Positions 4,548 to 27,210 of a stretch of DNA of 27,974 nt are shown here, piece by piece. The notes under the pieces were generated by a model. It ran no database searches, was not told the DNA's origin, and saw nothing but the letters and a program-made list of their open reading frames with translations. The DNA is from Gammaproteobacteria bacterium (GTDB lineage Bacteria; Pseudomonadota; Gammaproteobacteria; GCA-001735895). The translations under genes and the position numbers were made by a program. Where the stretch lies: positions 1-27,974 of the forward strand of contig JBNKUM010000113.1 of NCBI GenBank assembly GCA_050298595.1. Direction: 5' to 3'. Within the stretch, counting starts at the first letter, position 1; each line of letters begins with the position of its first letter.

Positions 4548-6068
4548 ATGTTAAATTTACACAAAATCAAAACTACAGGACTTGCTCTGTTAGCGGCTTC
4601 GATAAGCGTACTGAGTGCCTGTGCTACAAGTGATCCAGGCCCCTACAGTTCACAGCCCAGTCCAGTCGTAGCAACAGCAACTGGAGAAAACTATTCTACC
4701 CTGCGCGAAAATCAGCTACTCAGGGTAAACAATGAGCCCGTTAGTACATTCAGTATTGATGTAGATACAGCCGCCTATGCCAATGTACGCAGGTTTATCA
4801 ACAATGGCTACCTGCCACCGCAAGACGCCGTGCGTATTGAAGAGATGATCAATTATTTCGACTACGACTATCCGGCAGCAGAGTCAGCGGATGAACCGTT
4901 TCGTATTATTTCTGAGATCGCCCCTACACCCTGGAATAGTGGTAGTTATCTGTTACATATCGGCATCAAGGGCTACCAGCCGCCACAGACTGAACAGCCT
5001 GCGCGCAATCTGGTATTTCTGCTGGACGTTTCTGGTTCTATGGATGCGCCAAACAAACTGGAGTTACTCAAAAAGTCACTACGCCTGCTGGTCAACCAGC
5101 TCAGCATGCGTGACCGAGTAGCGATTGTGGTGTATGCAGGAACCTCCGGAATTGTATTACCTTCTACACCTGGTAACCAGCGTCGCGAAATTATTCTGGC
5201 TCTGGAAAATCTGAGTGCTGGTGGTTCTACCAACGGTGGTGCTGGTATTGAGCTGGCTTATTCAATCGCTCAGCAAAACTATATCAAGGGTGGGATTAAC
5301 CGAGTGATCCTCGCGACTGATGGTGATTTCAATGTTGGTTCTTCAAATACAGATGAGTTAACACAGCTGATCAAACAGAAAAAACGTTCCGGAGTTGCAC
5401 TGACTGTGCTTGGCCTGGGTATGGGTGACTATAATGATCAGATGCTGGAAGAGATATCCAATGCAGGAGATGGGAATGCTGCGTATATAGATACGTTACA
5501 GGAAGCACAAAAGGTTCTGGTGCAGGACCTTGGCAGCACATTACAGACGATTGCACGTGATACCAGGATTCAGCTTGAATTTAATCCTGAAAAGGTGAGT
5601 AGTTATCGCTTAATCGGTTATGAAAACCGCATGCTCCACACAGAAGATTTCAAAAATGATCGCGTCGATGCTGGTGATGTTGGTGCTGGCCATACGGTCA
5701 CTGCACTGTATGAAATCACATTAAAAGATAGGCTACGTTACCAGGCAGCGCAAACTGTACAGAATATATTTAATAACGAACTCGCCTACCTGAAGCTGCG
5801 CTATAAAAAACCGAATGAGAGTAACAGTCGTGAAATTGTGCATGCCCTGTCTGCGCAGGATGTACAAATAAATCTGTCAGCAACTTCGGATAACTTCCGA
5901 TTTTCAGCAGCTGTTGCAGCGTTTGGCCAGCTACTAAGAAGCGGCGACCAGGTGGGGGACTTTTCTTTGACTGAGGTTGAGACTCTGGCCCAGCAAAGTC
6001 GTGGCGTCGACAGATTTGGTTATCGCAGTGAATTTGTAAAGCTGGTTCGCCTGGCAGAATCGCTATAG
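4548..6068 (+). CDS. YfbK-like von Willebrand factor A domain lipoprotein (DUF3520-type C-terminus)
   Basis: AGGAG RBS; lipobox VLSA|C; STFSIDVDTAAY and RIEEMINYF motifs; MIDAS DVSGSM; LATDGDFNVG; YRLIGYENR. Confidence 0.92.
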   Translation: MLNLHKIKTTGLALLAASISVLSACATSDPGPYSSQPSPVVATATGENYSTLRENQLLRVNNEPVSTFSIDVDTAAYANVRRFINNGYLPPQDAVRIEEMINYFDYDYPAAESADEPFRIISEIAPTPWNSGSYLLHIGIKGYQPPQTEQPARNLVFLLDVSGSMDAPNKLELLKKSLRLLVNQLSMRDRVAIVVYAGTSGIVLPSTPGNQRREIILALENLSAGGSTNGGAGIELAYSIAQQNYIKGGINRVILATDGDFNVGSSNTDELTQLIKQKKRSGVALTVLGLGMGDYNDQMLEEISNAGDGNAAYIDTLQEAQKVLVQDLGSTLQTIARDTRIQLEFNPEKVSSYRLIGYENRMLHTEDFKNDRVDAGDVGAGHTVTALYEITLKDRLRYQAAQTVQNIFNNELAYLKLRYKKPNESNSREIVHALSAQDVQINLSATSDNFRFSAAVAAFGQLLRSGDQVGDFSLTEVETLAQQSRGVDRFGYRSEFVKLVRLAESL

Positions 6069-6423
6069 CCATACATATAAAAGGGTTTAAGACACCACTG
6101 ATGTGTGTATATTGTCTCTGGCACACAGGCTGATGCGCACAGCGTCGGGTGGGGGTGAAAATCCTGGAAATCAACTGAAAGCCACCGGTTTCAGAGTTAT
6201 TTCAGTCTGTACAGTGAATTTTGTGCAAAAAAATTGTGCAAAAAAAGAGCTGGAACTCCGGAATTTTTTTATTTGTTTGTGTTTTAATTAGTGGCTGCCA
6301 TGTCTATAGATGGCTTTTTGTGAAGATGAATCGGTAAAAGAGTCCGTTTTCCAGACTCGAGATCTTATATTTCCGGAGCCGGGGAATTCAACACTTGGTA
6401 CAATTTTTCGTTGTGTTCATAAA

Positions 6424-7470
6424 ATGATTACTCTTGGATTACTTGGGTTTGATGCGGCATTGGTCAAATCCTTATCGATAGCCCTTAGCAGTCGGGCAGC
6501 AAAAGTCTGTCAGTATGTCGAGCCGGAAGCGGCTTCGGTGGTGTTGGTTGATATTGATAATCTGCAGGATCAAAATGCCTGGAAACAGTTAAAAGATGCA
6601 TGCTCATCAATATTTATAGCCGCTTCTCAAAACCTCACACTACCGGCGGGATATGAACAGGACTTTGTTTCAGTTATTGCTAAGCCAATACGTTTTACAG
6701 CGATGCTTGCGTCGGTAAAAGCTGCTGTAGCCAGTGGGCAGGAGTCAGCCCAATCTCTAAATAACACCTCGATGGTCGCGGATTTGATCGATAGCGGGCG
6801 GATGCGCCGTAATTCTGAGGTGCTGCGTAGCCAGGCAGAGATTGATCCAGATAACTTCCTGTTAGGGTTTGTGCTGAATTCAGTGCAACTCAATTCAGCT
6901 GATCATTACCGTTATATCTGTCTTGATGAAGGTCATCCCCGTAATGATGGGCAATGGTTAGTGATCGATAAACGATTGGGCAGAGTTTATCTCAGTATCA
7001 ATGCGAAGGTGATTAGCCATACTGCAATTATGGATTTTTCACAGCATGGGGTCATTGAGCAGTGGATTAATTCCAGTCAGCTGGCTGAGCTTAAATCCAG
7101 AGCTGTGCAGAATATTCCCGTTGAAGAGTTTATCTGGGTATTGACCAGGGACACGGTTCGTAATGCACGCCTTATGAACTTTGATACTGAAAAGCGTTAT
7201 CGGCTTAAATGCTGGCCGAACTTAACCTGTTACGCCACTGGTAATCAGGATGTTGCAATAGCCAGTTTCTGGGCTGAAAGTAATGCCAGTGCGGTTGAAC
7301 TGGCTACTAGCCTGGGTATGACGCTTAATGACGTCCTGCCTTTTGCTACTTGTTGTTTTACCTGTGGTTTGCTCGAGCCAGTTGATAAACCTGTGGCGAT
7401 GACCACCCGTAAACCGAAAACAGGCTTTAACAAGGTGTTATCTATGATTTTGAAAAAACTGGAAAGTTGA
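6424..7470 (+). CDS. Receiver-like domain protein with C-terminal PATAN/DUF4388-like and winged-helix region (partner of MglA-like GTPase)
   Basis: REC-like VVLVDID and IAKP; C-terminal RLKCWPNLT and ASAVELATSLGMTLNDV..GLLE; terminal amphipathic helix. ATG 6424 is preferred over 6310 on domain start only. Confidence 0.65.
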   Translation: MITLGLLGFDAALVKSLSIALSSRAAKVCQYVEPEAASVVLVDIDNLQDQNAWKQLKDACSSIFIAASQNLTLPAGYEQDFVSVIAKPIRFTAMLASVKAAVASGQESAQSLNNTSMVADLIDSGRMRRNSEVLRSQAEIDPDNFLLGFVLNSVQLNSADHYRYICLDEGHPRNDGQWLVIDKRLGRVYLSINAKVISHTAIMDFSQHGVIEQWINSSQLAELKSRAVQNIPVEEFIWVLTRDTVRNARLMNFDTEKRYRLKCWPNLTCYATGNQDVAIASFWAESNASAVELATSLGMTLNDVLPFATCCFTCGLLEPVDKPVAMTTRKPKTGFNKVLSMILKKLES

Positions 7471-7473
7471 GCT

Positions 7474-8013
7474 ATGCGCAAGGGTAATTTAAAAATAGTT
7501 TTCGCCGGTTCTATTGGTGCAGGTAAAACGACAGCTATTCAGTCGGTTAGTGATGTTGAAGTGGTACATACTGAGGAAATGGCCACCGATGATGTGAAGC
7601 AGATGAAGGAAACAACCACCGTTGCCATGGACTACGGCCAGATGATTCTCGAAGACAAAACCCTGTTGCATTTGTACGGAGCGCCAGGGCAGGGGCGGTT
7701 TGATTTTATGTGGGAGATACTGTCGCTTGGTGCACTGGGGGTGATCGTTCTGATTGATGCGGCAAGTTCTGATCCGTTTGCCCAGATTGATGCCTATATG
7801 ACAGGTTTTGAGCAACAGCTACGAGAGCGAACTATGGTCATTGGTCTTTCGCGTACTGACCTTAATGAACAGTTCCAACTGGATGAATATCGCAGTTATA
7901 TCTGTCGATATGATCAAAGTATCCCTCTGCTCACTGTCGATACCCGTCAGCAGCAGCAAGTTAGAGTTCTGGTGAGAGTTCTGTTACACCGAATAGATCC
8001 CTGGTTGGTGTAG
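7474..8013 (+). CDS. MglA-like (conservon CvnD-type) small Ras-like GTPase
   Basis: G1 GSIGAGKTT, switch I TTVAMDYG, G3 YGAPGQGRFDFMW, G4-like SRTD, G5-like VDTR. Confidence 0.9.
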   Translation: MRKGNLKIVFAGSIGAGKTTAIQSVSDVEVVHTEEMATDDVKQMKETTTVAMDYGQMILEDKTLLHLYGAPGQGRFDFMWEILSLGALGVIVLIDAASSDPFAQIDAYMTGFEQQLRERTMVIGLSRTDLNEQFQLDEYRSYICRYDQSIPLLTVDTRQQQQVRVLVRVLLHRIDPWLV

Positions 8014-9327
8014 ATGATGTATTCTTCAGAGATTAATTTACTATCGCTAAGAGATTTTGGTGTTAATTTCGGAAAGCGTAAAATTCTCACCGGGATTAAT
8101 CTGGATATAGGCGATAAGGGGATTACCCATTTGCTAGGGCCCTGCGGAGCCGGAAAATCTACTTTGCTCAGGTCCCTGGCCGGCCTTAACGATTTGTCTT
8201 CTATGTACCAGCCGCAGGGTACAGTGTTTTACAAGGGTGAGGCTCTGGGTACTCTTGATCGTCCCTTGATGATGGAGCAAAAACCTTCCGGGCTGTTGAA
8301 TAATATATTTAACAGTATTTTAACTCTTCTGCCAGAAAGGGGCTCGCTGAGCGCCCGTCAACAAATTGATCTGGTCGATCGTCTGTTGCGACAATATGGT
8401 TTGTCTCACTTAGTCAATAGCTTGAGTACGCCATTAACCCAGTTATCGCTAGCTGATCGACGCAGTGTTCTTATACTGGGGCTAGTGGTCACCGCACCGG
8501 AAATGATTATGCTGGATGAGCCGACTGCTAATATGCCAGAGGATGATGCCAGGGTGGTGCTTGATTTGATCAGACTTGTGGCCGAATTGCGCTCTGTCTT
8601 GCTGGTTCAGCACAATCAGGAATATGTCAAATATCTGGGCGGCAACGCGATATTGATTGCCGGGGGGACGATTCAGGAAGAGGCTACAGCGCAAAAATTA
8701 CTGACAGAACCCGTTTCCGCAGCCGGACAGGAATTCGCGGGAAGTGGTACCTGTGCCGCACCTAGTCCGGATACTGACCCTGAAATGCTGGACGAGGCCT
8801 TTGTCGCAAGGTACAAACCGGTCGTTCGTGAACTGGAGAAACAACCCAGAATTATACCATTTGGTCCGCAAGGTTTTCGTTGGGTAGAGCGTGAAAAGCT
8901 CGCGGCCACACCCAGGCCGGGTATAGGGGGAGATATGGAATATGATTTAAAGGCGCTTGCCAGAGTCAAAATTGATTATCTGGTGTCACTCGAGGAAATT
9001 ATGCCGCTGCAAGAGGCTGACACTGCTGAATATAATATATCACTGTACCATTTACCAACGGTTGATATGGGCGTACCTGAGATGGATGAAACGCTGACAT
9101 TAAATCGTGCGATGCATCAATGGCTGAAGCAGGGCAAGCGAGTTGCTGTGCATTGTAAGGCCGGTCTCGGTCGTACCGGTACCATGTTGGCGGCTTATTA
9201 TATTTTAAAGGGCATGAGTGCTGCGGATGCCATGCAGAAACTTCGTCTTGTGAATCCGCGCATGATTCAATCTGGTGAGCAGGAAAAGTTTCTGTTCGAT
9301 TATTCCGATTATATTGCTGCAATTTAA
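8014..9327 (+). CDS. ABC-type ATPase domain fused to a dual-specificity/CDC14-like Cys phosphatase
   Basis: Walker A GPCGAGKS, Q-loop, degenerate signature LSLAD, Walker B IMLDEP, H-loop VQHN; C-terminal PTVDMGVP loop and HCKAGLGRTG (9151-9180). Confidence 0.88.
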   Translation: MMYSSEINLLSLRDFGVNFGKRKILTGINLDIGDKGITHLLGPCGAGKSTLLRSLAGLNDLSSMYQPQGTVFYKGEALGTLDRPLMMEQKPSGLLNNIFNSILTLLPERGSLSARQQIDLVDRLLRQYGLSHLVNSLSTPLTQLSLADRRSVLILGLVVTAPEMIMLDEPTANMPEDDARVVLDLIRLVAELRSVLLVQHNQEYVKYLGGNAILIAGGTIQEEATAQKLLTEPVSAAGQEFAGSGTCAAPSPDTDPEMLDEAFVARYKPVVRELEKQPRIIPFGPQGFRWVEREKLAATPRPGIGGDMEYDLKALARVKIDYLVSLEEIMPLQEADTAEYNISLYHLPTVDMGVPEMDETLTLNRAMHQWLKQGKRVAVHCKAGLGRTGTMLAAYYILKGMSAADAMQKLRLVNPRMIQSGEQEKFLFDYSDYIAAI

Positions 9328-9521
9328 AAAAGGAAGTCAAGTGATTTATTTATCTATAAATACAGTGACCGTTCATGCAAAAAAACAAAATATAGATGAA
9401 AAAAATTTTTTTTTGTATTCTATAATTACTGATTCGTTTCTGTGTAAAGTTTTCTTCTACTTTGAAGTTAATTTTACTCAGCCGGATATCACCCAATATT
9501 TTAGTAACCAGGAGTCCTAGA

Positions 9522-9923
9522 ATGTCTTTAGATGTAGAAGTACAAAATTCAATTGCCACTATCCCTGAATGTATTGCTGCCGGTTATGTCGATGTCGGCA
9601 CCGGTATGCTGTTAAGTATAAAATCTGTCGACTCTCATCCCGGAGAAGTGATGGATCTGTTAGCGGCCGCAACCGGTGATCTCTTTCAGGGGCCTAATGT
9701 CGTAGCTATTGAAGATATCTTTAAAAAGGCTCGTGGTTCAAATGATCAGGGTCATTACTTTCAGGAAATGGTTGTGCTCAGTGATAATCTTGTGCATGTT
9801 TTTCTACGGGGAAAGACTTACACTGAACATGTTGTAGTATTTGTTTGCCGTAAATCAGTCAATCTGGGAATGGCATTAACCAAGGCTAGAATGGCTGCGC
9901 CTAAACTGGAAGCTGCACTTTAA
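9522..9923 (+). CDS. Divergent roadblock/LC7-like protein, paralog 1
   Basis: ATG after an AGGAG RBS (9510-9514); 133 aa; helix/strand pattern fits a roadblock fold; clear paralog of 10215-10649. Confidence 0.7.
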   Translation: MSLDVEVQNSIATIPECIAAGYVDVGTGMLLSIKSVDSHPGEVMDLLAAATGDLFQGPNVVAIEDIFKKARGSNDQGHYFQEMVVLSDNLVHVFLRGKTYTEHVVVFVCRKSVNLGMALTKARMAAPKLEAAL

Positions 9924-10214
9924 TCTCCTGGGCTGTCATTTCGCGTGGCTTGCCATGTGAGAATAAGGATGTTTCTATGGGAGTCTTAAGATTCCCGTGA
10001 AACTCCTAAGACACCTCTTATCAATATGATGTATCTGTGGCACATAGTTTAATGCGCAATCAGGTCACAGCTTGGCGCACACGCGTCTGCCTGGGAAGAA
10101 GTTGTAATGATTAGCACAGAGACATTACATACAGATCAGAGAAGTCCTAAGCAAATATCCCGTCCGCTTGCGAGGGGGGATGTATAGCTTTAAATGGGTT
10201 GAAAAAACGTTCCT

Positions 10215-10649
10215 ATGTCATTAAAAAGTCAGTTGTATAAGTCGATAAGAGGAATGCCTCTATGTATTGCAGGCGGGTATATCGATCTTGACAATAAAAT
10301 ACTGCTAGATATGTTGACGAGAGGGCCAGAGTCCAAGGAGATGCTGCCGCGACTGGTTGGTATCACAGAGGATTTATTTCAGGGTTCGAATGTAAAGATG
10401 ATTGAACAGATTTTTAATAAATCTCGAGGCGTACAAGATCGTGGCCGACATTTATTTCAGGAAATGGTGGTTATGAATGAGGATTTGATTCACGTTTTTA
10501 TTCGCGGAAAAACATTTAATAATCATATTGTCACCTTTATTTTTGAAGGTAAGATGAATATGGGGTTGTCACTGTCAAAATCACGTAAAGAAATACCCTT
10601 GCTGGAAGATGAAGTGGCATTATTGCGTATGCAAAATCGAAAACTTTAG
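10215..10649 (+). CDS. Divergent roadblock/LC7-like protein, paralog 2
   Basis: Shares CIAxGYxD, DLFQGxNV, IExIFxKxRG, FQEMVV and HVFxRGKT with 9522-9923. Confidence 0.7.
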   Translation: MSLKSQLYKSIRGMPLCIAGGYIDLDNKILLDMLTRGPESKEMLPRLVGITEDLFQGSNVKMIEQIFNKSRGVQDRGRHLFQEMVVMNEDLIHVFIRGKTFNNHIVTFIFEGKMNMGLSLSKSRKEIPLLEDEVALLRMQNRKL

Positions 10650-10670
10650 AATTATTGAGATTTAGCTAAA

Positions 10671-11039
10671 GTGGCGTATAAACTAAATGTAATCAATAAA
10701 ATACTGGGTGATTTTGTCATTAGTTCTTCCAGTATTCAGGCTGCCGCAGTGATGACTCGTGACGGTCACCTTATCGCTTCTAATCTAGATGCTGGTGTGG
10801 ATGGTGATCGCTTAAGTGCTATTTCAGCTTCGCTATTATCGCTAGCTGATCGGGCCACTCAGGATGTACAACAGGGTATTTTGAAACAGGTGCTTATCGC
10901 TAATAGTGATGGCTTTATCCTCATGCTCAAAGTAGGCGAAAACGCCGTACTTTCAGTAGTTTCAGAAGCTAGTTCCAGCCTGGGCATGTTATTGCACGAG
11001 GCAAATAAATCCGCCGCCATTCTGGCTCATTTAATTTAA
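10671..11039 (+). CDS. Roadblock/LC7 (MglB-like) protein
   Basis: 122 aa with AAAVMTRDGHLIAS, DRLSAISASLLSLA, GILKQVLI...GFILM and SLGMLL, the classic roadblock signature. GTG start. Confidence 0.88.
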   Translation: MAYKLNVINKILGDFVISSSSIQAAAVMTRDGHLIASNLDAGVDGDRLSAISASLLSLADRATQDVQQGILKQVLIANSDGFILMLKVGENAVLSVVSEASSSLGMLLHEANKSAAILAHLI

Positions 11040-11063
11040 GCACAGATTGCTTTGCTACTGCAT

Positions 11064-12620
11064 ATGACAACAATCTATTTTGAAAATGATTCTTTCGAAT
11101 GCCGTGATAATGAATCGGTTCTGGATGCATTACTCAGACAGGGCAGGGAGATTCCTTTTTCATGTCGCAATGGAGTCTGCCACGCCTGCCTGATGCGTGT
11201 GGTCGAAGGCGCTCCTGGAGAGTCTGCACAGAAAGGATTATCTCAAGGTTTATTGCAGAAAAATTATTTTCTGCCCTGCCGTTGCCGTCCGGATAAAGAT
11301 TTGACTATTGCGTTACCGCGTTCTGCAGATCTAAGTTGCCTGGCAATTGTACAGGGAAAGCAACAACTGAATGATCAGGTCTGGCGTTTTGAGATAGAGC
11401 CCTCGGTTGAATTGTTTTATCACGCTGGCCAGTTTATTAGTATCAAAAATCCGCAAGGCGTAGTGCGTAGTTATTCAATCGCCAGTGTGCCGCAGCAGGA
11501 TTATTTTCTTGAACTGCATATTAATCGTCATGATCAAGGGCAAATGAGTCGATGGTTGATTGATGAGGTTGAAGTGGGAGATGAAATTCAAATAATCCGC
11601 CCAGAGGGCAATAATTTTTACCAGGCTGGGCAACAAACACCTTTGTTGCTGGCAGGTACTGGAACGGGTTTGGCTCCATTAATCGGTATTGCGAGAGACG
11701 CCCTGTATTCCGGGCATCAGGCAGCGGTTCATCTTTATCATGGAGCTGTTGATAAGCATGGGCTTTATTTACAGGAAAGTTTACGCAGTCTGGAACAGAC
11801 GTTTGAGACTTTCCATTTCCATCCCTGCGTTATTAATGAGCAAAGTATTCAACAGGCGATTTCAGCACAGCATGTTTCACTATCTGGCTGGCAAATTTAT
11901 ATTGCAGGAAATCCACTGCTGGTAACCTCAGTAGCTGAGCAGGCGCAGCAACTGGGCGCTGACGAATCAGCAATTTTTAAAGATCCTTTTACCCTCAGTG
12001 AAATCACTGGAACAGATGACTACACTGATGTTAGCGAACAAAATAATCGTCAGCCTCAGGAGATGGCTTATCCGCCCCCGGATACTGAACTCTGGCAAGC
12101 TCTGGGTGAGGGTGAAATACTTAAAAGGATTCTCGATGATTTTTACGATGCAGTATTTGAGGACCCGGTAATGTCTCCGTACTTTCATAACTCGACCAAG
12201 ACTCGAGCGAAAGAAAAGGTTTACTCATTTTATCGACGTTTATTTTCCGGGGAGCGAGTTTATTTCGGTGACAGGCCGCGCAATGCACACCACTGGATGG
12301 TGATTAGCGATGAGGTGTTTAACTATCGCGAAATCTTGCTCAAAAGCTTTATGCAGAAACATGGATTAAACGATGCAATGATCACTCGTTGGCAGGTTCT
12401 TGAAGAATTGTATCGTCCTGATATTGTAAAAACCAGGGCGAGGGGACGCATGGTCGGCGATATCGAAACTCCGGCAGAAGGTTACGGCAAGATCACATTA
12501 AGTGTTGCCGGTATGTGCGATGCATGCCATGAAGAAATTGATACGGGAACAGAAGTGGTTTATCACTTGCGCACAGGTGAGCTATTCTGTGCGAATTGTT
12601 CGGCCAGCAGACACTGTTGA
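11064..12620 (+). CDS. Multidomain oxidoreductase: [2Fe-2S] ferredoxin, FAD/NAD(P)H FNR module, group I truncated globin and CxxC...CxxC ribbon
   Basis: CRNGVCHAC..C; RSYSIAS, GQMS and GTGLAP; globin LWQALG..DDFYDAV..PYF..RNAHHW; terminal CDAC (12516) and CANC (12588). Confidence 0.82.
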   Translation: MTTIYFENDSFECRDNESVLDALLRQGREIPFSCRNGVCHACLMRVVEGAPGESAQKGLSQGLLQKNYFLPCRCRPDKDLTIALPRSADLSCLAIVQGKQQLNDQVWRFEIEPSVELFYHAGQFISIKNPQGVVRSYSIASVPQQDYFLELHINRHDQGQMSRWLIDEVEVGDEIQIIRPEGNNFYQAGQQTPLLLAGTGTGLAPLIGIARDALYSGHQAAVHLYHGAVDKHGLYLQESLRSLEQTFETFHFHPCVINEQSIQQAISAQHVSLSGWQIYIAGNPLLVTSVAEQAQQLGADESAIFKDPFTLSEITGTDDYTDVSEQNNRQPQEMAYPPPDTELWQALGEGEILKRILDDFYDAVFEDPVMSPYFHNSTKTRAKEKVYSFYRRLFSGERVYFGDRPRNAHHWMVISDEVFNYREILLKSFMQKHGLNDAMITRWQVLEELYRPDIVKTRARGRMVGDIETPAEGYGKITLSVAGMCDACHEEIDTGTEVVYHLRTGELFCANCSASRHC

Positions 12621-12651
12621 ATAGATATTTTCGCAGGGTTCAGCTTGCAGC

Positions 12652-12685
12652 AATACTCCGTCAGCTTGCTGCGGGGTTGTTTATT
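12652..12685 (-). repeat. Palindromic REP/IS200-IS605-end-like repeat, copy 1
   Basis: Reverse complement AATAAACAACCCCGCAGCAAGCTGACGGAGTATT matches 20372-20405 at 31/34 positions. It forms a hairpin between convergent genes. Confidence 0.75.
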
Positions 12686-12687
12686 AG

Positions 12688-13368
12688 TCAGGACTCATCT
12701 TTATAAGCTAACCAGATCGTATGTCTGGCTCCTTTTTTACCATGTGCATAAATCTTCTTCTCTTCAACCCTTAAACGGCAGGATTTCAGTAATTTATTAA
12801 ATTTGGGGTCAGTTACAGCAGACCAATAGCTGACAATGCCTTTAGGTTTGAGTGCTGTGCGTACACAATGTATGCCTGCGGCTGTATACAACCAGTCGTT
12901 ACTTGTTTTGGTTAGCCCATCAGGACCATTGTCTACATCCAGAGCGATCACATCGTAACAGGCCTTCTGGACACGTAATATTTTCCCTACATCAGTAATA
13001 TGGACTCGTGTACGTTGATCATTGAGTGGATATCCACTGATAGCACCCAGCGGTCCTCGATTCCATTCAACCACTTCAGGAATTAATTCCGCTACATCGA
13101 CCACAGCCTGTGGCCCGACATGAGCCAGTACAGATGCCAGAGTAAAGCCCATGCCCAGGCCACCAATTAAAATCTGGGGCGCTTCAGGGTTTTTCAGTGC
13201 CTGACAGGGTAAATAACCTAATGCATCCTCAGAACCGTGTTGGCGGGTATTCATCAACTCAATGCCACCCGATATCTTGATATGAAAATCATCCTTGTCC
13301 TGGAATAACATTAATGTTTTCTCAGAACCCGGTATTGGAGCCGTGCCTAATTGGTTCCAGTGACGCAT
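12688..13368 (-). CDS. Spermidine synthase-like class I SAM-dependent methyltransferase
   Basis: ILIGGLGMGFTL, VAELIPEVVEW and DVIALDVDNGP. ATG 13368 is preferred over TTG 13389. Confidence 0.8.
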   Translation of the reverse strand: MRHWNQLGTAPIPGSEKTLMLFQDKDDFHIKISGGIELMNTRQHGSEDALGYLPCQALKNPEAPQILIGGLGMGFTLASVLAHVGPQAVVDVAELIPEVVEWNRGPLGAISGYPLNDQRTRVHITDVGKILRVQKACYDVIALDVDNGPDGLTKTSNDWLYTAAGIHCVRTALKPKGIVSYWSAVTDPKFNKLLKSCRLRVEEKKIYAHGKKGARHTIWLAYKDES

Positions 13369-25104: not shown

Positions 25105-27210
25105 ATGGATATCCCAGGATATAAATTAGGCCGAGAGTTTGCCGATGGAGAGTATTGCAGAGTTTTCAATGCACTGGACCTGAGCAATCATAAAACCGTT
25201 AATATACAGGTATTTGATTCCTCTCTTATCGCAAATCCGGCATTTTCAACCCAGTTCAGAAATGTCACCAGTAAACTGGTGGGCACCAGTTTTGGAATCA
25301 TGGCACCGTTTCTTCAGGCTGAGATATCAAACCAGGCCTGTTACGTGGTTTCTCAATACTTTCCCAATTCTCAGCAATTATCCGCTACCCCGCCAACTTT
25401 GACCAGACGTCAGATTCTGAAATTTGCTCTACAACTGGCGAAAACCCTTGACCAGCTACATTTAGCAGGCCTAGTTCATGGCGGTATTGAATACAGCTCC
25501 CTCTACTTTAAGGCTCCCGATCAGTTAATGTTAAAGCCTGTGATCCTGCAGAGATTAATACCGACGCTACGACCAATAACCTTCAAGTCGCTGGATCAGT
25601 CGCAAAAACGATACCTGGCCCCTGAAGCTAGTAAAGGTCTGACACCGGCAACTGATTTTTATGCACTTGGCGTACTGCTATATCAACTGATTTTTGGCTC
25701 TCTCCCCGTAGAGAAGACAGACGCCAGGCTGTTCCAGGAATGGCCATCCACAGGTGATATTAAGGACTTGAAAGTTTTTTTTATAAAACTGCTCGCCCAC
25801 GATCCTGGTCAAAGGATCCAGAGTCTTAATCAATTCACCGAGGCGCTAGAGCAATGTGGTATCGACTTACTCAAATTGGCACCCACCGTTTCTAAAACCA
25901 CAGCTGTCCAATACGACAGAGCTAATCATAACAAAACTGCTTCTCGCTCATTTTCGAAGTGGATGGTTCTCACTGCCAGTTTGGCTGTGATCGCTCTGAC
26001 TGGCACACTCATTTTGTTGCCATCTCATGAGGAAGCACAACAACAACCGGTCCTTGAGGAAGCACAACAACAGTCAGCTCTTGATGAAGAAGCACAGCAA
26101 CAGTCAATTTTTGACGAAGCAAAGCAACAGCGAGAGCTGGAGGATGCATCAGAGGTGGCGGCCTCTGCTGACACAACGAACGTAGAAAAAAAAACGGTTG
26201 AACAGCCCTCCGCCGACACCTTTACGAAAATAGAGATGACCGAGGCTGAGCCCTCTGTCGAAAACCTGTACCAACAAGCTTTGACCCAAGTGGAGACGAA
26301 CCCTGAAGCCGCATTGCAGATCGTAAATGATTTACTAGAACAAAAACCTGCCGATATCGCGTCATTAAAACTGAAGCAACAGATTGAAAAGGAGTTAGAG
26401 ATACGCTCGCTAATCAATACGGCAGAGCAGCAATTGAAAGAACTAAAACTGCTTGATCCCGATGGGGACAACGCCTATGAATCTTACCAGACGGTGGCTG
26501 GAATGCTATCCTCAGATGATGAGCGGGTACGTAGTGGATTCACTCATATTGCCGCCGCCTACCATGCCCTGGCCGAAAATCTATTTAAAGAAGAGCGTCT
26601 CGACAAGGCGCTGGAACGTGTTGAGCGGGGTCTATCCGTCAAGGACGATTATGCCCCGTTACTTAAGCTTCGCATTACTATCAATGAGAAAAAAAATGAG
26701 TTGCAGCGTAAATTAAAACTTGCAAAACTGGAGAAACAGCGCGAACAAGAAATACAAAAAATGCTGGAAAATCAGCAACGACGGGAGGAACAGCGACTTC
26801 GGATAAAGAAAGAGCAAGCGGCGTTAGAACGGAAGCGTCAGAAGGAAGAAAAAGCCAAAAGATTAGCACAACAAGTTAAAGAAAAAGAGTTAGAATCAAT
26901 TAAACAAAGTAAAGTCGATGCTTTGTTGAAATCGGCCAACGATCATCTCAAAACCGGTCGGCGAACGTTGAAAAAAGTATTTGCTGCTCACATCGACTAT
27001 GATGAGCTGCAAAAACTGAATTCCACAAGCCAGAGAGTTACCGAGTTAAAGGAGGCGCTTATCAATGCCTATATGTTACTTTCCGAAAGGCAATCTAATG
27101 ACAAACTCTATAAGTTAGCCATTCAAGCCATTAAGCAGGGCGTTCAAATGAGCCCTGAAGACAAAAAACAATTGCAGATCAGATCACAGCTCTCTTTTTC
27201 AACTTTTTGA
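25105..27210 (+). CDS. Membrane-anchored Ser/Thr kinase-like protein (probable pseudokinase) with TPR-like and coiled-coil C-terminus
   Basis: MDIPGYKL start, YLAPE, TDFYALGVLLYQLIFG and DPGQR retained; catalytic motifs degenerate; TM WMVLTASLAVIALTGTLILL; EQK-rich coiled coil. Confidence 0.8.
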   Translation: MDIPGYKLGREFADGEYCRVFNALDLSNHKTVNIQVFDSSLIANPAFSTQFRNVTSKLVGTSFGIMAPFLQAEISNQACYVVSQYFPNSQQLSATPPTLTRRQILKFALQLAKTLDQLHLAGLVHGGIEYSSLYFKAPDQLMLKPVILQRLIPTLRPITFKSLDQSQKRYLAPEASKGLTPATDFYALGVLLYQLIFGSLPVEKTDARLFQEWPSTGDIKDLKVFFIKLLAHDPGQRIQSLNQFTEALEQCGIDLLKLAPTVSKTTAVQYDRANHNKTASRSFSKWMVLTASLAVIALTGTLILLPSHEEAQQQPVLEEAQQQSALDEEAQQQSIFDEAKQQRELEDASEVAASADTTNVEKKTVEQPSADTFTKIEMTEAEPSVENLYQQALTQVETNPEAALQIVNDLLEQKPADIASLKLKQQIEKELEIRSLINTAEQQLKELKLLDPDGDNAYESYQTVAGMLSSDDERVRSGFTHIAAAYHALAENLFKEERLDKALERVERGLSVKDDYAPLLKLRITINEKKNELQRKLKLAKLEKQREQEIQKMLENQQRREEQRLRIKKEQAALERKRQKEEKAKRLAQQVKEKELESIKQSKVDALLKSANDHLKTGRRTLKKVFAAHIDYDELQKLNSTSQRVTELKEALINAYMLLSERQSNDKLYKLAIQAIKQGVQMSPEDKKQLQIRSQLSFSTF
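26029..26147 (+). repeat. Intragenic tandem repeat of 27-30 bp encoding EEAQQQxxL(D)
   Basis: EEAQQQPVL EEAQQQSALD EEAQQQSIF DEAKQQREL; DNA unit GAGGAAGCACAACAACA repeated with progressive decay. Confidence 0.85.

Follow-up and report, generated by a model that had tools for sequence, protein, structure and literature searches.

A switch logic, in which a nucleoside triphosphatase (NTPase) is paired with a Roadblock-fold regulator, characterizes the MglA-MglB polarity switch of Myxococcus and Thermus (PDB entries 3t12 and 6h5b). In the Group 3 MglA systems of beta- and gammaproteobacteria, as described in the main text of Wuichet & Sogaard-Andersen 2014 (PMC4316618), MglA and one or two MglB proteins are encoded together with a conserved protein whose function is not known and that has a REC-like N terminus and a winged helix-turn-helix (wHTH)-like C terminus; the word phosphatase does not occur in that main text, and the neighborhoods described there include no ATP-binding cassette (ABC) partner and no globin. 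Actinobacterial conservons (CvnA-D) combine an ATP_bind_1/MglA-type GTPase and a CvnB-like Roadblock protein in one operon. That a transporter-type ATPase can dock on a non-membrane protein or a small alpha/beta accessory protein has precedents in PhnK on the C-P lyase, SufC, SmsC, and MlaF with its STAS partner MlaB; to our knowledge, all of these keep the canonical signature and none is fused to a phosphatase. Here, we describe a gene at positions 8014 to 9327 of a gammaproteobacterial DNA stretch of 27,974 bases (hereafter, the window; one whole contig of a source genome of 5.49 Mb in 119 contigs), which encodes a PstB-derived ABC ATPase fused to a Cys-based phosphatase and which is near-obligately linked to a gene for a small protein, sm153, with a predicted MglB/Roadblock fold. 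Rather than a transporter motor, the product is probably part of a cytoplasmic nucleotide-switch signaling module whose output is a phosphatase. In kind, the fusion is a variant of two things already known, NTPase-Roadblock switches and ABC ATPases that do not serve transport. The fusion and its parts are located as follows:

8014..9327, + strand: ABC ATPase-phosphatase fusion, 437 amino acids (aa), open frame throughout
8014..8754, + strand: PstB-derived nucleotide-binding domain, residues 1-247, ending in the invariant G245-x-C247
8137-8163, + strand: Walker A, GPCGAGKST, residues 42-50
8278-8280, + strand: Q-loop, Q89
8443-8457, + strand: signature position, LSLAD, residues 144-148
8509-8523, + strand: Walker B, MLDEP, residues 166-170, with D168-E169
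8605-8616, + strand: H-loop, VQHN, with H200
8869..9327, + strand: atypical Cys-based phosphatase domain of the dual-specificity/tyrosine type, residues 286-437
9061-9078, + strand: putative general-acid loop, VDMGVP, residues 350-355, with D351 at 9064-9066
9151-9180, + strand: P-loop, HCKAGLGRTG, residues 380-389

A first-pass annotation, made from the sequence alone, had named Walker A and B, the Q- and H-loops, LSLAD, VDMGVP, and HCKAGLGRTG as the motifs of this protein, and all of them were indeed located in the 437-aa open reading frame (ORF). The domain-architecture search that it proposed found ABC_tran and DSPc together, both above their Pfam cutoffs, in one continuous frame. ABC_tran (PF00005) scores 56.5 bits (cutoff 25) over residues 25-172, and PTP-SAK scores 61 bits (cutoff 27) over residues 286-426; further matches above cutoff in the phosphatase domain are Tc-R-P (58.4 bits; cutoff 27), DSPc (42.9 bits; cutoff 33.5), and Y_phosphatase (37.1 bits), the phosphatase accessions tested being PF22784, PF22785, and PF00782. 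An AlphaFold2 (AF2) model of the whole fusion reached a pLDDT of 92.7 and a pTM of 0.88, with values of 83-92 for the blocks of the linker. Because the model is confident including the linker, the ABC and phosphatase domains are predicted to pack in a fixed, rigid arrangement. In the interdomain linker (8740-8772, residues 243-253), the invariant G245-x-C247 comes first and a P-S-P-D-like stretch after it (G-x-C-x-x-P-S-P-D), and C247 could be a regulatory Cys near the Cys-based active site.

The fusion family is real, widespread, and uncharacterized. A homologue search of 5.8 billion proteins gave 1342 matches, of which the best 120 were examined; 118 of these are 400-520 aa long, cover the whole query, and are 35-96% identical to it, and the two others (359 and 267 aa, on contigs of 1407 and 901 bases) were left out as fragments. 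A second search, with residues 240-437 (phosphatase plus linker) against 1.84 billion representatives at 50% identity, returned 968 proteins at E <= 1e-10, and the ABC-plus-phosphatase architecture was found in 133 of the best 150 of them. With at least 118 full-length homologues and these 133 representatives, the concern of the first-pass annotation that the fusion might be a singleton or an artefact is laid to rest. The 17 of the best 150 that lack the ABC domain are mostly proteins of 135-277 aa or tandem phosphatases; the phosphatase subfamily also occurs as arrays of two to four domains without ABC, as in P0123 (603 aa) and P0242 (506 aa). At the other extreme, longer fusions of 676-1180 aa carry an N-terminal extension without a Pfam family, and in P0186, P0191, and P0201 (1122-1180 aa), a family-less extension of 250-450 aa precedes the ABC domain. 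Carriers of the fusion include Oceanobacter mangrovi, Microbulbifer rhizosphaerae, Marinobacter, Reinekea, Polaromonas, Xenophilus, Hyalangium gracile, a Planctomycetales bacterium, and a Thermoanaerobaculia metagenome-assembled genome, such that the family ranges over Gamma- and Betaproteobacteria, Myxococcota, Planctomycetota, and Acidobacteriota. Its prevalence was ~1.5% in a sample of 401 genomes of the class. Database names for the protein are "ATP-binding cassette domain-containing protein," "atypical dual specificity phosphatase," and "putative toxin," and our literature search found no publication on ABC-DSP (dual-specificity phosphatase) fusions or on Roadblock proteins with a globin or a phosphatase.

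Conservation was evaluated in an alignment of the query and its 118 homologues (119 rows); both domains are under constraint. G42, G47, K48, S49, Q89, D168, E169, and D351 are present in all 119 rows, as is the string H380-C381-x-x-G-x-G-R-T-G; H200 is present in 118, and F19, the probable A-loop aromatic residue, in at least 95%. Since Walker A, Q89, D168, E169, and H200 are near-invariant, the residues for ATP binding and hydrolysis have been kept. The signature motif behaved differently. Its position in the alignment reads L (112 rows), then P (64) or S (32), then L (92), followed by variable residues and by Q/R-R; where the first Gly would be expected, Gly does not rank among the six most frequent residues. 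An LSGG[QE] motif was found in only 1 of the 133 ABC-bearing representatives. The degeneration of LSGGQ to LSLAD pointed out in the first-pass annotation therefore holds family-wide, with a consensus of L-P/S-L-x-x; the motif by which ATP is clamped in the canonical head-to-tail dimer has been lost throughout the history of the family.

Regarding its ancestry, the ABC domain is derived from PstB, the ATPase of the PstSCAB importer. The best NCBIfam model was PstB (TIGR00972) with 94.8 bits, the runner-up scoring 65, and the top Foldseek matches were E. coli PstB (9k3s_C and 9k3x_C; E 1.1e-16, TMt 0.83-0.85). Over fusion residues 1-245, the two proteins have in common Walker A and B, the Q-K-P stretch of the Q-loop, the H-N-x-Q stretch of the H-loop, and the C-terminal tail. 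Unlike PstB, the fusion has LSLAD in place of LSGGQ and a phosphatase at its C terminus, and pstSCA genes were not found nearby; at 94.8 bits versus a curated cutoff of 343.2, it falls short of the TIGR00972 equivalog test. PhnK, SufC, SmsC, and MlaF were all among the structural matches as well.

The phosphatase domain is a single small atypical DSP/protein tyrosine phosphatase (PTP). A sequence search of the PDB gave, as best relatives over the whole domain, 25xa (1e-20), DUSP23/VHZ (5e-15), and SsoPTP (1e-13), followed by ShufPTP and Tk-PTP; receptor PTPs also ranked ahead of CDC14. The three best relatives share with the fusion the HCxxGxGRTG P-loop, the general-acid Asp, and a C-terminal E-Q-E stretch, but they stand alone (~150 aa), whereas the phosphatase in the window is fused behind an ABC ATPase via a conserved linker. 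D351 aligns to the loop Asp of DUSP23 (T-V-D-M in the query, I-P-D-F in DUSP23). D351, C381, and R387 are invariant (119/119), Q419, S420, and Q423 are invariant or at least 95% conserved, and the third P-loop position is K in 63, R in 48, and L in 7 rows. With the CX5R nucleophile and Arg in place and the general-acid Asp ~30 residues upstream, the site looks complete and active. The similarity of the domain to DUSP23 and SsoPTP suggests phosphotyrosine or a small phosphoester, which would, by analogy, be the most likely substrate.

The first-pass annotation had called the phosphatase CDC14-type, quoting P-loops that we take to be those of CDC14 and PTEN. This assignment did not hold up. CDC14 has the same Cys-based PTP fold and a very similar P-loop, but it came 12th in the PDB search (5e-9), with eleven other solved sequences scoring higher, and its match spans about 80 residues around the P-loop; PTEN (1e-8) likewise aligned around the P-loop only. 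When the P-loop segment alone was used as a query, receptor PTPs and 25xa came out on top and CDC14B ranked only 9th, so the HCKAGLGRTG motif is not diagnostic of CDC14. Furthermore, the N-terminal DSPn domain of CDC14 was not found in a Pfam search of the fusion, which has a single catalytic domain of ~150 aa. On these grounds, we rejected membership in the CDC14 group.

The most constant companion of the fusion is the gene for sm153:

9522..9923, + strand: sm153, Roadblock/MglB-fold protein (predicted), constant partner gene, 133 aa

We placed its start at the ATG at 9522 (the listed ORF runs from 9462 to 9923) on the basis of the homologue alignment and an AGGAG 8 nucleotides upstream. No Pfam family, Robl_LC7 (PF03259) included, matched sm153 even at E 10. 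The protein is common: 1922 clusters (at 90% identity) were found at E <= 1e-5, named "hypothetical protein" wherever they are named at all, and the mean column identity was 67% over 74 sequences from several phyla. Its AF2 model (pLDDT 91.4) has the topology a-b-b-a-b-b-b-a, and in Foldseek, Roadblock/LC7, MglB, MglC, and LAMTOR proteins headed a list of 118 matches in the PDB (E <= 0.001). The top structures were Roadblock/LC7 3kye and MglB 3t1r, 3t1s, and 3t12, with E-values of 1.6e-7 to 1.6e-6 and TMq of about 0.7; with MglB 1j3w and the Asgard Roadblock, MglC, and LAMTOR proteins included, the values span 1.6e-7 to 1.7e-5 and 0.6-0.7, and an hhalign comparison to the canonical Roadblock family gave 78% probability (E 1.7e-5). 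These models indicate that sm153 adopts the MglB/Roadblock fold, at about 14-20% identity to MglB and with conserved Cys and His residues of its own.

We quantified the gene linkage from both sides. Ten fusion-anchored genome loci were available, six from a scan of genome contigs and four from genomes of the class sample. The contig scan with the fusion alignment was swamped by Walker A, and only 6 of its 80 kept loci were true fusions; the 74 others, namely, 73 ordinary ABC genes and one phosphatase alone (L070), were not used. A homologue of sm153 was found in all 10 fusion-anchored loci, directly downstream of the fusion in 9. Conversely, a metagenome scan anchored on sm153 kept 80 loci, 36 of which had at least 1.7 kb on both sides. 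The fusion was present in all 36 and adjacent to sm153 in 35, the exception being L107, where it lies 4 kb away. Two loci (L151 and L158) miss the 1.2-kb phosphatase criterion solely through a longer linker, and the 15 sm153-anchored loci without a phosphatase match all end short on one side. In the class sample, six genomes had a strong sm153 match, and the fusion stood beside sm153 in each of the six. The linkage between the fusion and sm153 is near-obligate. The ATPase can hence no longer be called an "orphan," as the first-pass annotation had it: it has a near-obligate Roadblock-fold partner gene and, in the window, an abutting gene for a small GTPase.

A few further observations concern sm153 itself. 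Distant relatives (28-32% identity) occur without the fusion, in L178, L179, and L180; in the last of these (G261:C37), a GTPase, a Roadblock gene, and an sm153-like gene follow in this order, an arrangement that resembles a plain Group 3 MglA system with two MglB genes. Within the sm153 subfamily, C17, H39 (in V-D-S-H-P), and C109 are at least 90% conserved, with H78 and H92 also conserved, and such Cys and His residues are unusual among Roadblock proteins. C17, H39, and C109 are missing from the distant relative L004:9528-9935. With C17 located where strand 1 starts and C109 where strand 5 ends, the two Cys could be joined in a disulfide or make up a metal site.

In the window, the fusion and sm153 are embedded in a row of genes on the same strand:

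6310..7470, + strand: unknown-function protein, upstream member of the operon, 386 aa
7474..8013, + strand: MglA/CvnD-like small GTPase, 179 aa
10215..10649, + strand: sm153 paralogue, 144 aa, 43-44% identical to sm153
10671..11039, + strand: canonical Roadblock/LC7 protein (MglB-type), 122 aa, Pfam Robl_LC7 3.6e-11
11052..12620, + strand: Fer2 - FNR (FAD/NAD) - truncated globin - Cys4 ribbon protein, 522 aa

The stop codon of the GTPase gene (TAG, 8011-8013) abuts the ATG of the fusion (8014). The GTPase matched the Pfam families ATP_bind_1 (4.1e-13) and Ras (1.2e-6), and its best solved relative was MglA of T. thermophilus (1.2e-3). Its G4 motif is GLSRTD, without the Lys, and its G5 motif is VDTR, the consensus of 26 sequences being G..R and VDAR. 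The 386-aa protein had no Pfam or NCBIfam match, and its nearest named cluster in the Atlas, PatA_N (0.78), is a lead only; the gene immediately upstream of the GTPase is a homologue in L094, L095, and seven metagenome loci, and in nine further loci, an ORF of ~206 aa in that place corresponds to the C-terminal half of the 386-aa protein (hhalign 99.6%, E 8e-25). The solved relatives of the 122-aa Roadblock protein are the Asgard Roadblock 7f8m (3.6e-16) and CvnB5 3leq (1e-7). The 522-aa protein matched Fer2, FAD_binding_6, NAD_binding_1, and Bac_globin; its recurring portion, residues 337-519 (globin plus Cys4), is a separate gene of ~211 aa in some loci and has four conserved Cys and a conserved N-A-H-H-W stretch that could, judged from its sequence, hold the proximal His.

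Comparing this operon to the published description of the Group 3 MglA systems (PMC4316618), we found that its gene content and its G4/G5 motifs match that type. Its unknown protein, MglA-like GTPase, and three MglB/Roadblock genes resemble the set given in the main text of that paper, in which the 386-aa protein would take the place of the "conserved protein of unknown function"; the G4 motif without the Lys of [NT]KxD, the DAR-like G5 motif, and the taxonomic range agree as well. What sets the present loci apart is that about one-third of those with the ABC-phosphatase lack any GTPase. Relative to the conservons, the window shares the GTPase and the CvnB-like Roadblock protein in one operon but has no genes for the CvnA histidine-kinase-like and DUF742 proteins; it has the ABC-phosphatase and the globin instead, and it comes from another phylum.

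To judge which parts of the operon belong together, we used 22 large metagenome loci that extend 5 kb or more upstream and 4 kb or more downstream. All 22 contained the fusion, 15 the GTPase, 14 a Roadblock gene, 15 the globin-Cys4 part, and 14 Fer2-FNR; among the genome loci, the GTPase was present in 8 of 10 (phmmer). The fusion and sm153 thus make up the universal core, to which the GTPase set and the globin are often added. Of the 52 fusions placed in a maximum-likelihood tree, 25 rows form a clade that lacks the GTPase and the Roadblock gene (support 99/98), and a second set of 26 rows (94/79) comprises the window and the GTPase-linked loci. Unlike in the MglA-MglB switch, the sole NTPase that adjoins the Roadblock protein in the GTPase-less clade is the ABC ATPase.

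We propose that a soluble, non-transport ABC ATPase with a Cys-based phosphatase acts together with its dedicated partner, sm153. The PstB-derived domain would bind, and perhaps hydrolyze, ATP as a switch. Without the motif that closes the head-to-tail dimer, its state would be read out through the packed phosphatase domain and sm153, where sm153 would regulate the ABC domain or read its state, much as MglB-type proteins do with MglA-type GTPases. The output would be the dephosphorylation of a substrate by the fused phosphatase, and the GTPase and the globin/Fer2-FNR protein may serve as upstream inputs, possibly for O2, NO, or redox state. If this is true, an ATPase of the transporter type has become a cytoplasmic signaling switch with a direct connection to a Cys-based phosphatase; Roadblock/MglB proteins, until now regulators of small GTPases, would control an ABC ATPase as well; and the Group 3 MglA systems, for which no output is known, would gain an enzymatic one together with a candidate gas or redox input. 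As the components are small and soluble, the hypothesis is directly testable.

A bolder version, which we put forward only tentatively and hold to be clearly less likely, takes the ABC domain itself as the switched NTPase on which sm153 acts as MglB acts on MglA, with a sensor of redox state, O2, or NO setting the phosphatase activity. In the GTPase-less clade, the fusion with sm153 would then be the whole switch; in the window, it would be coupled to a second, GTP-based one. Sensing might proceed via C17, H39, and C109 of sm153, via the linker residue C247 beside C381, and via the globin-Cys4 part with or without Fer2-FNR. This would make it the first ATPase-Roadblock switch, with a tyrosine-phosphatase output built in.

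Several points weigh against the signaling module as we propose it. The links between the fusion, sm153, and their neighbors are all genomic. Seven of the 22 large loci lack the GTPase and the Roadblock gene and seven lack the globin, and the GTPase and globin inputs are for this reason not general to the family. The fusion of the window sits on a long branch of the tree (2.11), so its clade placement is soft. The prevalence figures are floors: at a threshold of E <= 1e-40, the fusion was counted in 5 of 400 genomes of the class sample, and G234 was missed although its locus holds the fusion. The catalytic Glu, the H-loop His, and the PstB-like Q-loop are kept as in working transporters, which makes docking on a permease elsewhere conceivable. 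Lastly, a Pfam scan of flanking genes, covering 110 ORFs of 14 loci (169 ORFs existed across the 22 large loci), found no conserved protein kinase beside the module, with histidine kinases in L123 and L160 only. The window does contain a 701-aa ORF (25105-27210, +) with a weak Pkinase match (3e-8) 16 kb downstream of the module; it is a possible source of phospho-substrates, and conservation with the module was not seen.

Among the alternatives, the one that fares best, although we regard it as unlikely, gives the phosphatase a metabolic or housekeeping role, with a small phosphoester such as a nucleotide, an inositol phosphate, or an NADP-like compound as its substrate; the ABC domain would then be no more than an ATP sensor or an inert scaffold, and the neighbors would be co-regulated and not partners. 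Many enzymes with the PTP fold act on non-protein substrates, and a Pfam match to PTP-NADK (8.7e-8), the occurrence of PTPlike_phytase in relatives, and the absence of a conserved kinase from the 14 flank-scanned loci all fit this explanation. It has difficulty, however, with a near-obligate sm153 linkage that spans phyla and gene orders and so exceeds usual co-regulation, with the extreme conservation of sm153, and with protein phosphatases being the best solved relatives of the domain.

Considerably less probable is a transporter ATPase whose PstB-like domain docks on a distant permease (e.g., PstCA) or pairs with a canonical ATPase that contributes the lacking signature, the phosphatase thereby being tethered to a transporter. 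PstB is the best match of the ABC domain in both sequence and structure, Walker A and B and the Q- and H-loops are intact, and heterodimeric ABC transporters with one degenerate site are known. Yet, a Pfam search of the 22 ORFs of the 27,974-base contig found no permease or solute-binding gene, which bears out the first-pass annotation on this point, and every ORF in the window has at most two hydrophobic segments; the other ORFs encode MCP, Usp, VWA/YfbK, spermidine-synthase-like, xylose-utilization, cytochrome c peroxidase, GDSL lipase, and kinase-like proteins and several family-less ones. No permease was conserved near the fusion in the 10 genome loci. ABC-transport components did lie within 6 kb in 4 of the 14 flank-scanned metagenome loci, but no two of these are of one family and none adjoins the module (L105, nitrate-type BPD_transp_1/NMT1_2; L111, MacB/HlyD; L115, PBP_like_2; L144, ABC exporter), so that no permease lies consistently near the module across these 24 other loci. 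The PstB score lies far below its cutoff, the identity to the genome's own ABC ATPases does not exceed about 33%, and the constant neighbors are soluble switch proteins. The statement of the first-pass annotation that the ABC domain is no transporter motor is in this way supported indirectly, by the family-wide loss of the signature, the lack of a conserved permease, and the cytoplasmic switch-protein neighbors, which together make a motor function very unlikely.

Still more doubtful is a role as a toxin or as a conflict- or defense-system effector, as would be suggested by the Pfam match to Tc-R-P, a polymorphic-toxin DSP-PTPase family (1.2e-15), and by the NCBI/UniRef name "phosphatase domain-containing putative toxin." That name follows from the domain match only; PADLOC gave generic ABC matches alone for the fusion (mad3, 1.3e-14) and none for its six neighbors, Pfam detected nothing in the fusion or its neighbors that serves secretion, immunity, or toxin delivery, and the flanking genes differ between loci and are housekeeping in kind. 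An artefact of assembly or gene calling, or a one-off, can be practically dismissed in view of the continuous frame, the same architecture in 118 homologues on many contigs and in many phyla and in 133 of 150 representatives, and the confident two-domain model.

The arrangement of the module varies in a number of ways. Gene order within it is not fixed: sm153 directly follows the GTPase in L120 and L171, and L171 has the fusion upstream of the unknown protein and not between the GTPase and sm153. Second copies of sm153 occur also in L098, L099, and L160. In one lineage, the globin gene is followed by a family-less conserved ORF of ~200 aa and then by a second canonical Roadblock gene (L101, at 10551-11174, L104, L105, L107, L115, L128, L129, L143, and L149); an hhalign comparison (probability 2.8%) showed this ORF to be unrelated to the 386-aa upstream protein. 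In the window, two AT-rich gaps, at 9328-9521 (194 bases) and 9924-10214 (291 bases), break the otherwise tight row of genes. These gaps, which precede sm153 and its paralogue, may hold internal promoters or regulatory sites; a promoter and terminator scan of 6000-12800 gave 14 and 8 sites versus 13.4 and 6.8 expected, i.e., background. Finally, nitrate-assimilation-type genes lie near some of the loci (L101:1389-4067, L105:1180-4695, and L160:3209-3838 and 11115-11966), encoding a molybdopterin nitrate-reductase-like protein with Fer2_BFD, an NrtA-type binding protein with a permease, and REC-ANTAR regulators. Such neighbors hint at a theme of nitrogen oxides, with which the globin would be in keeping.

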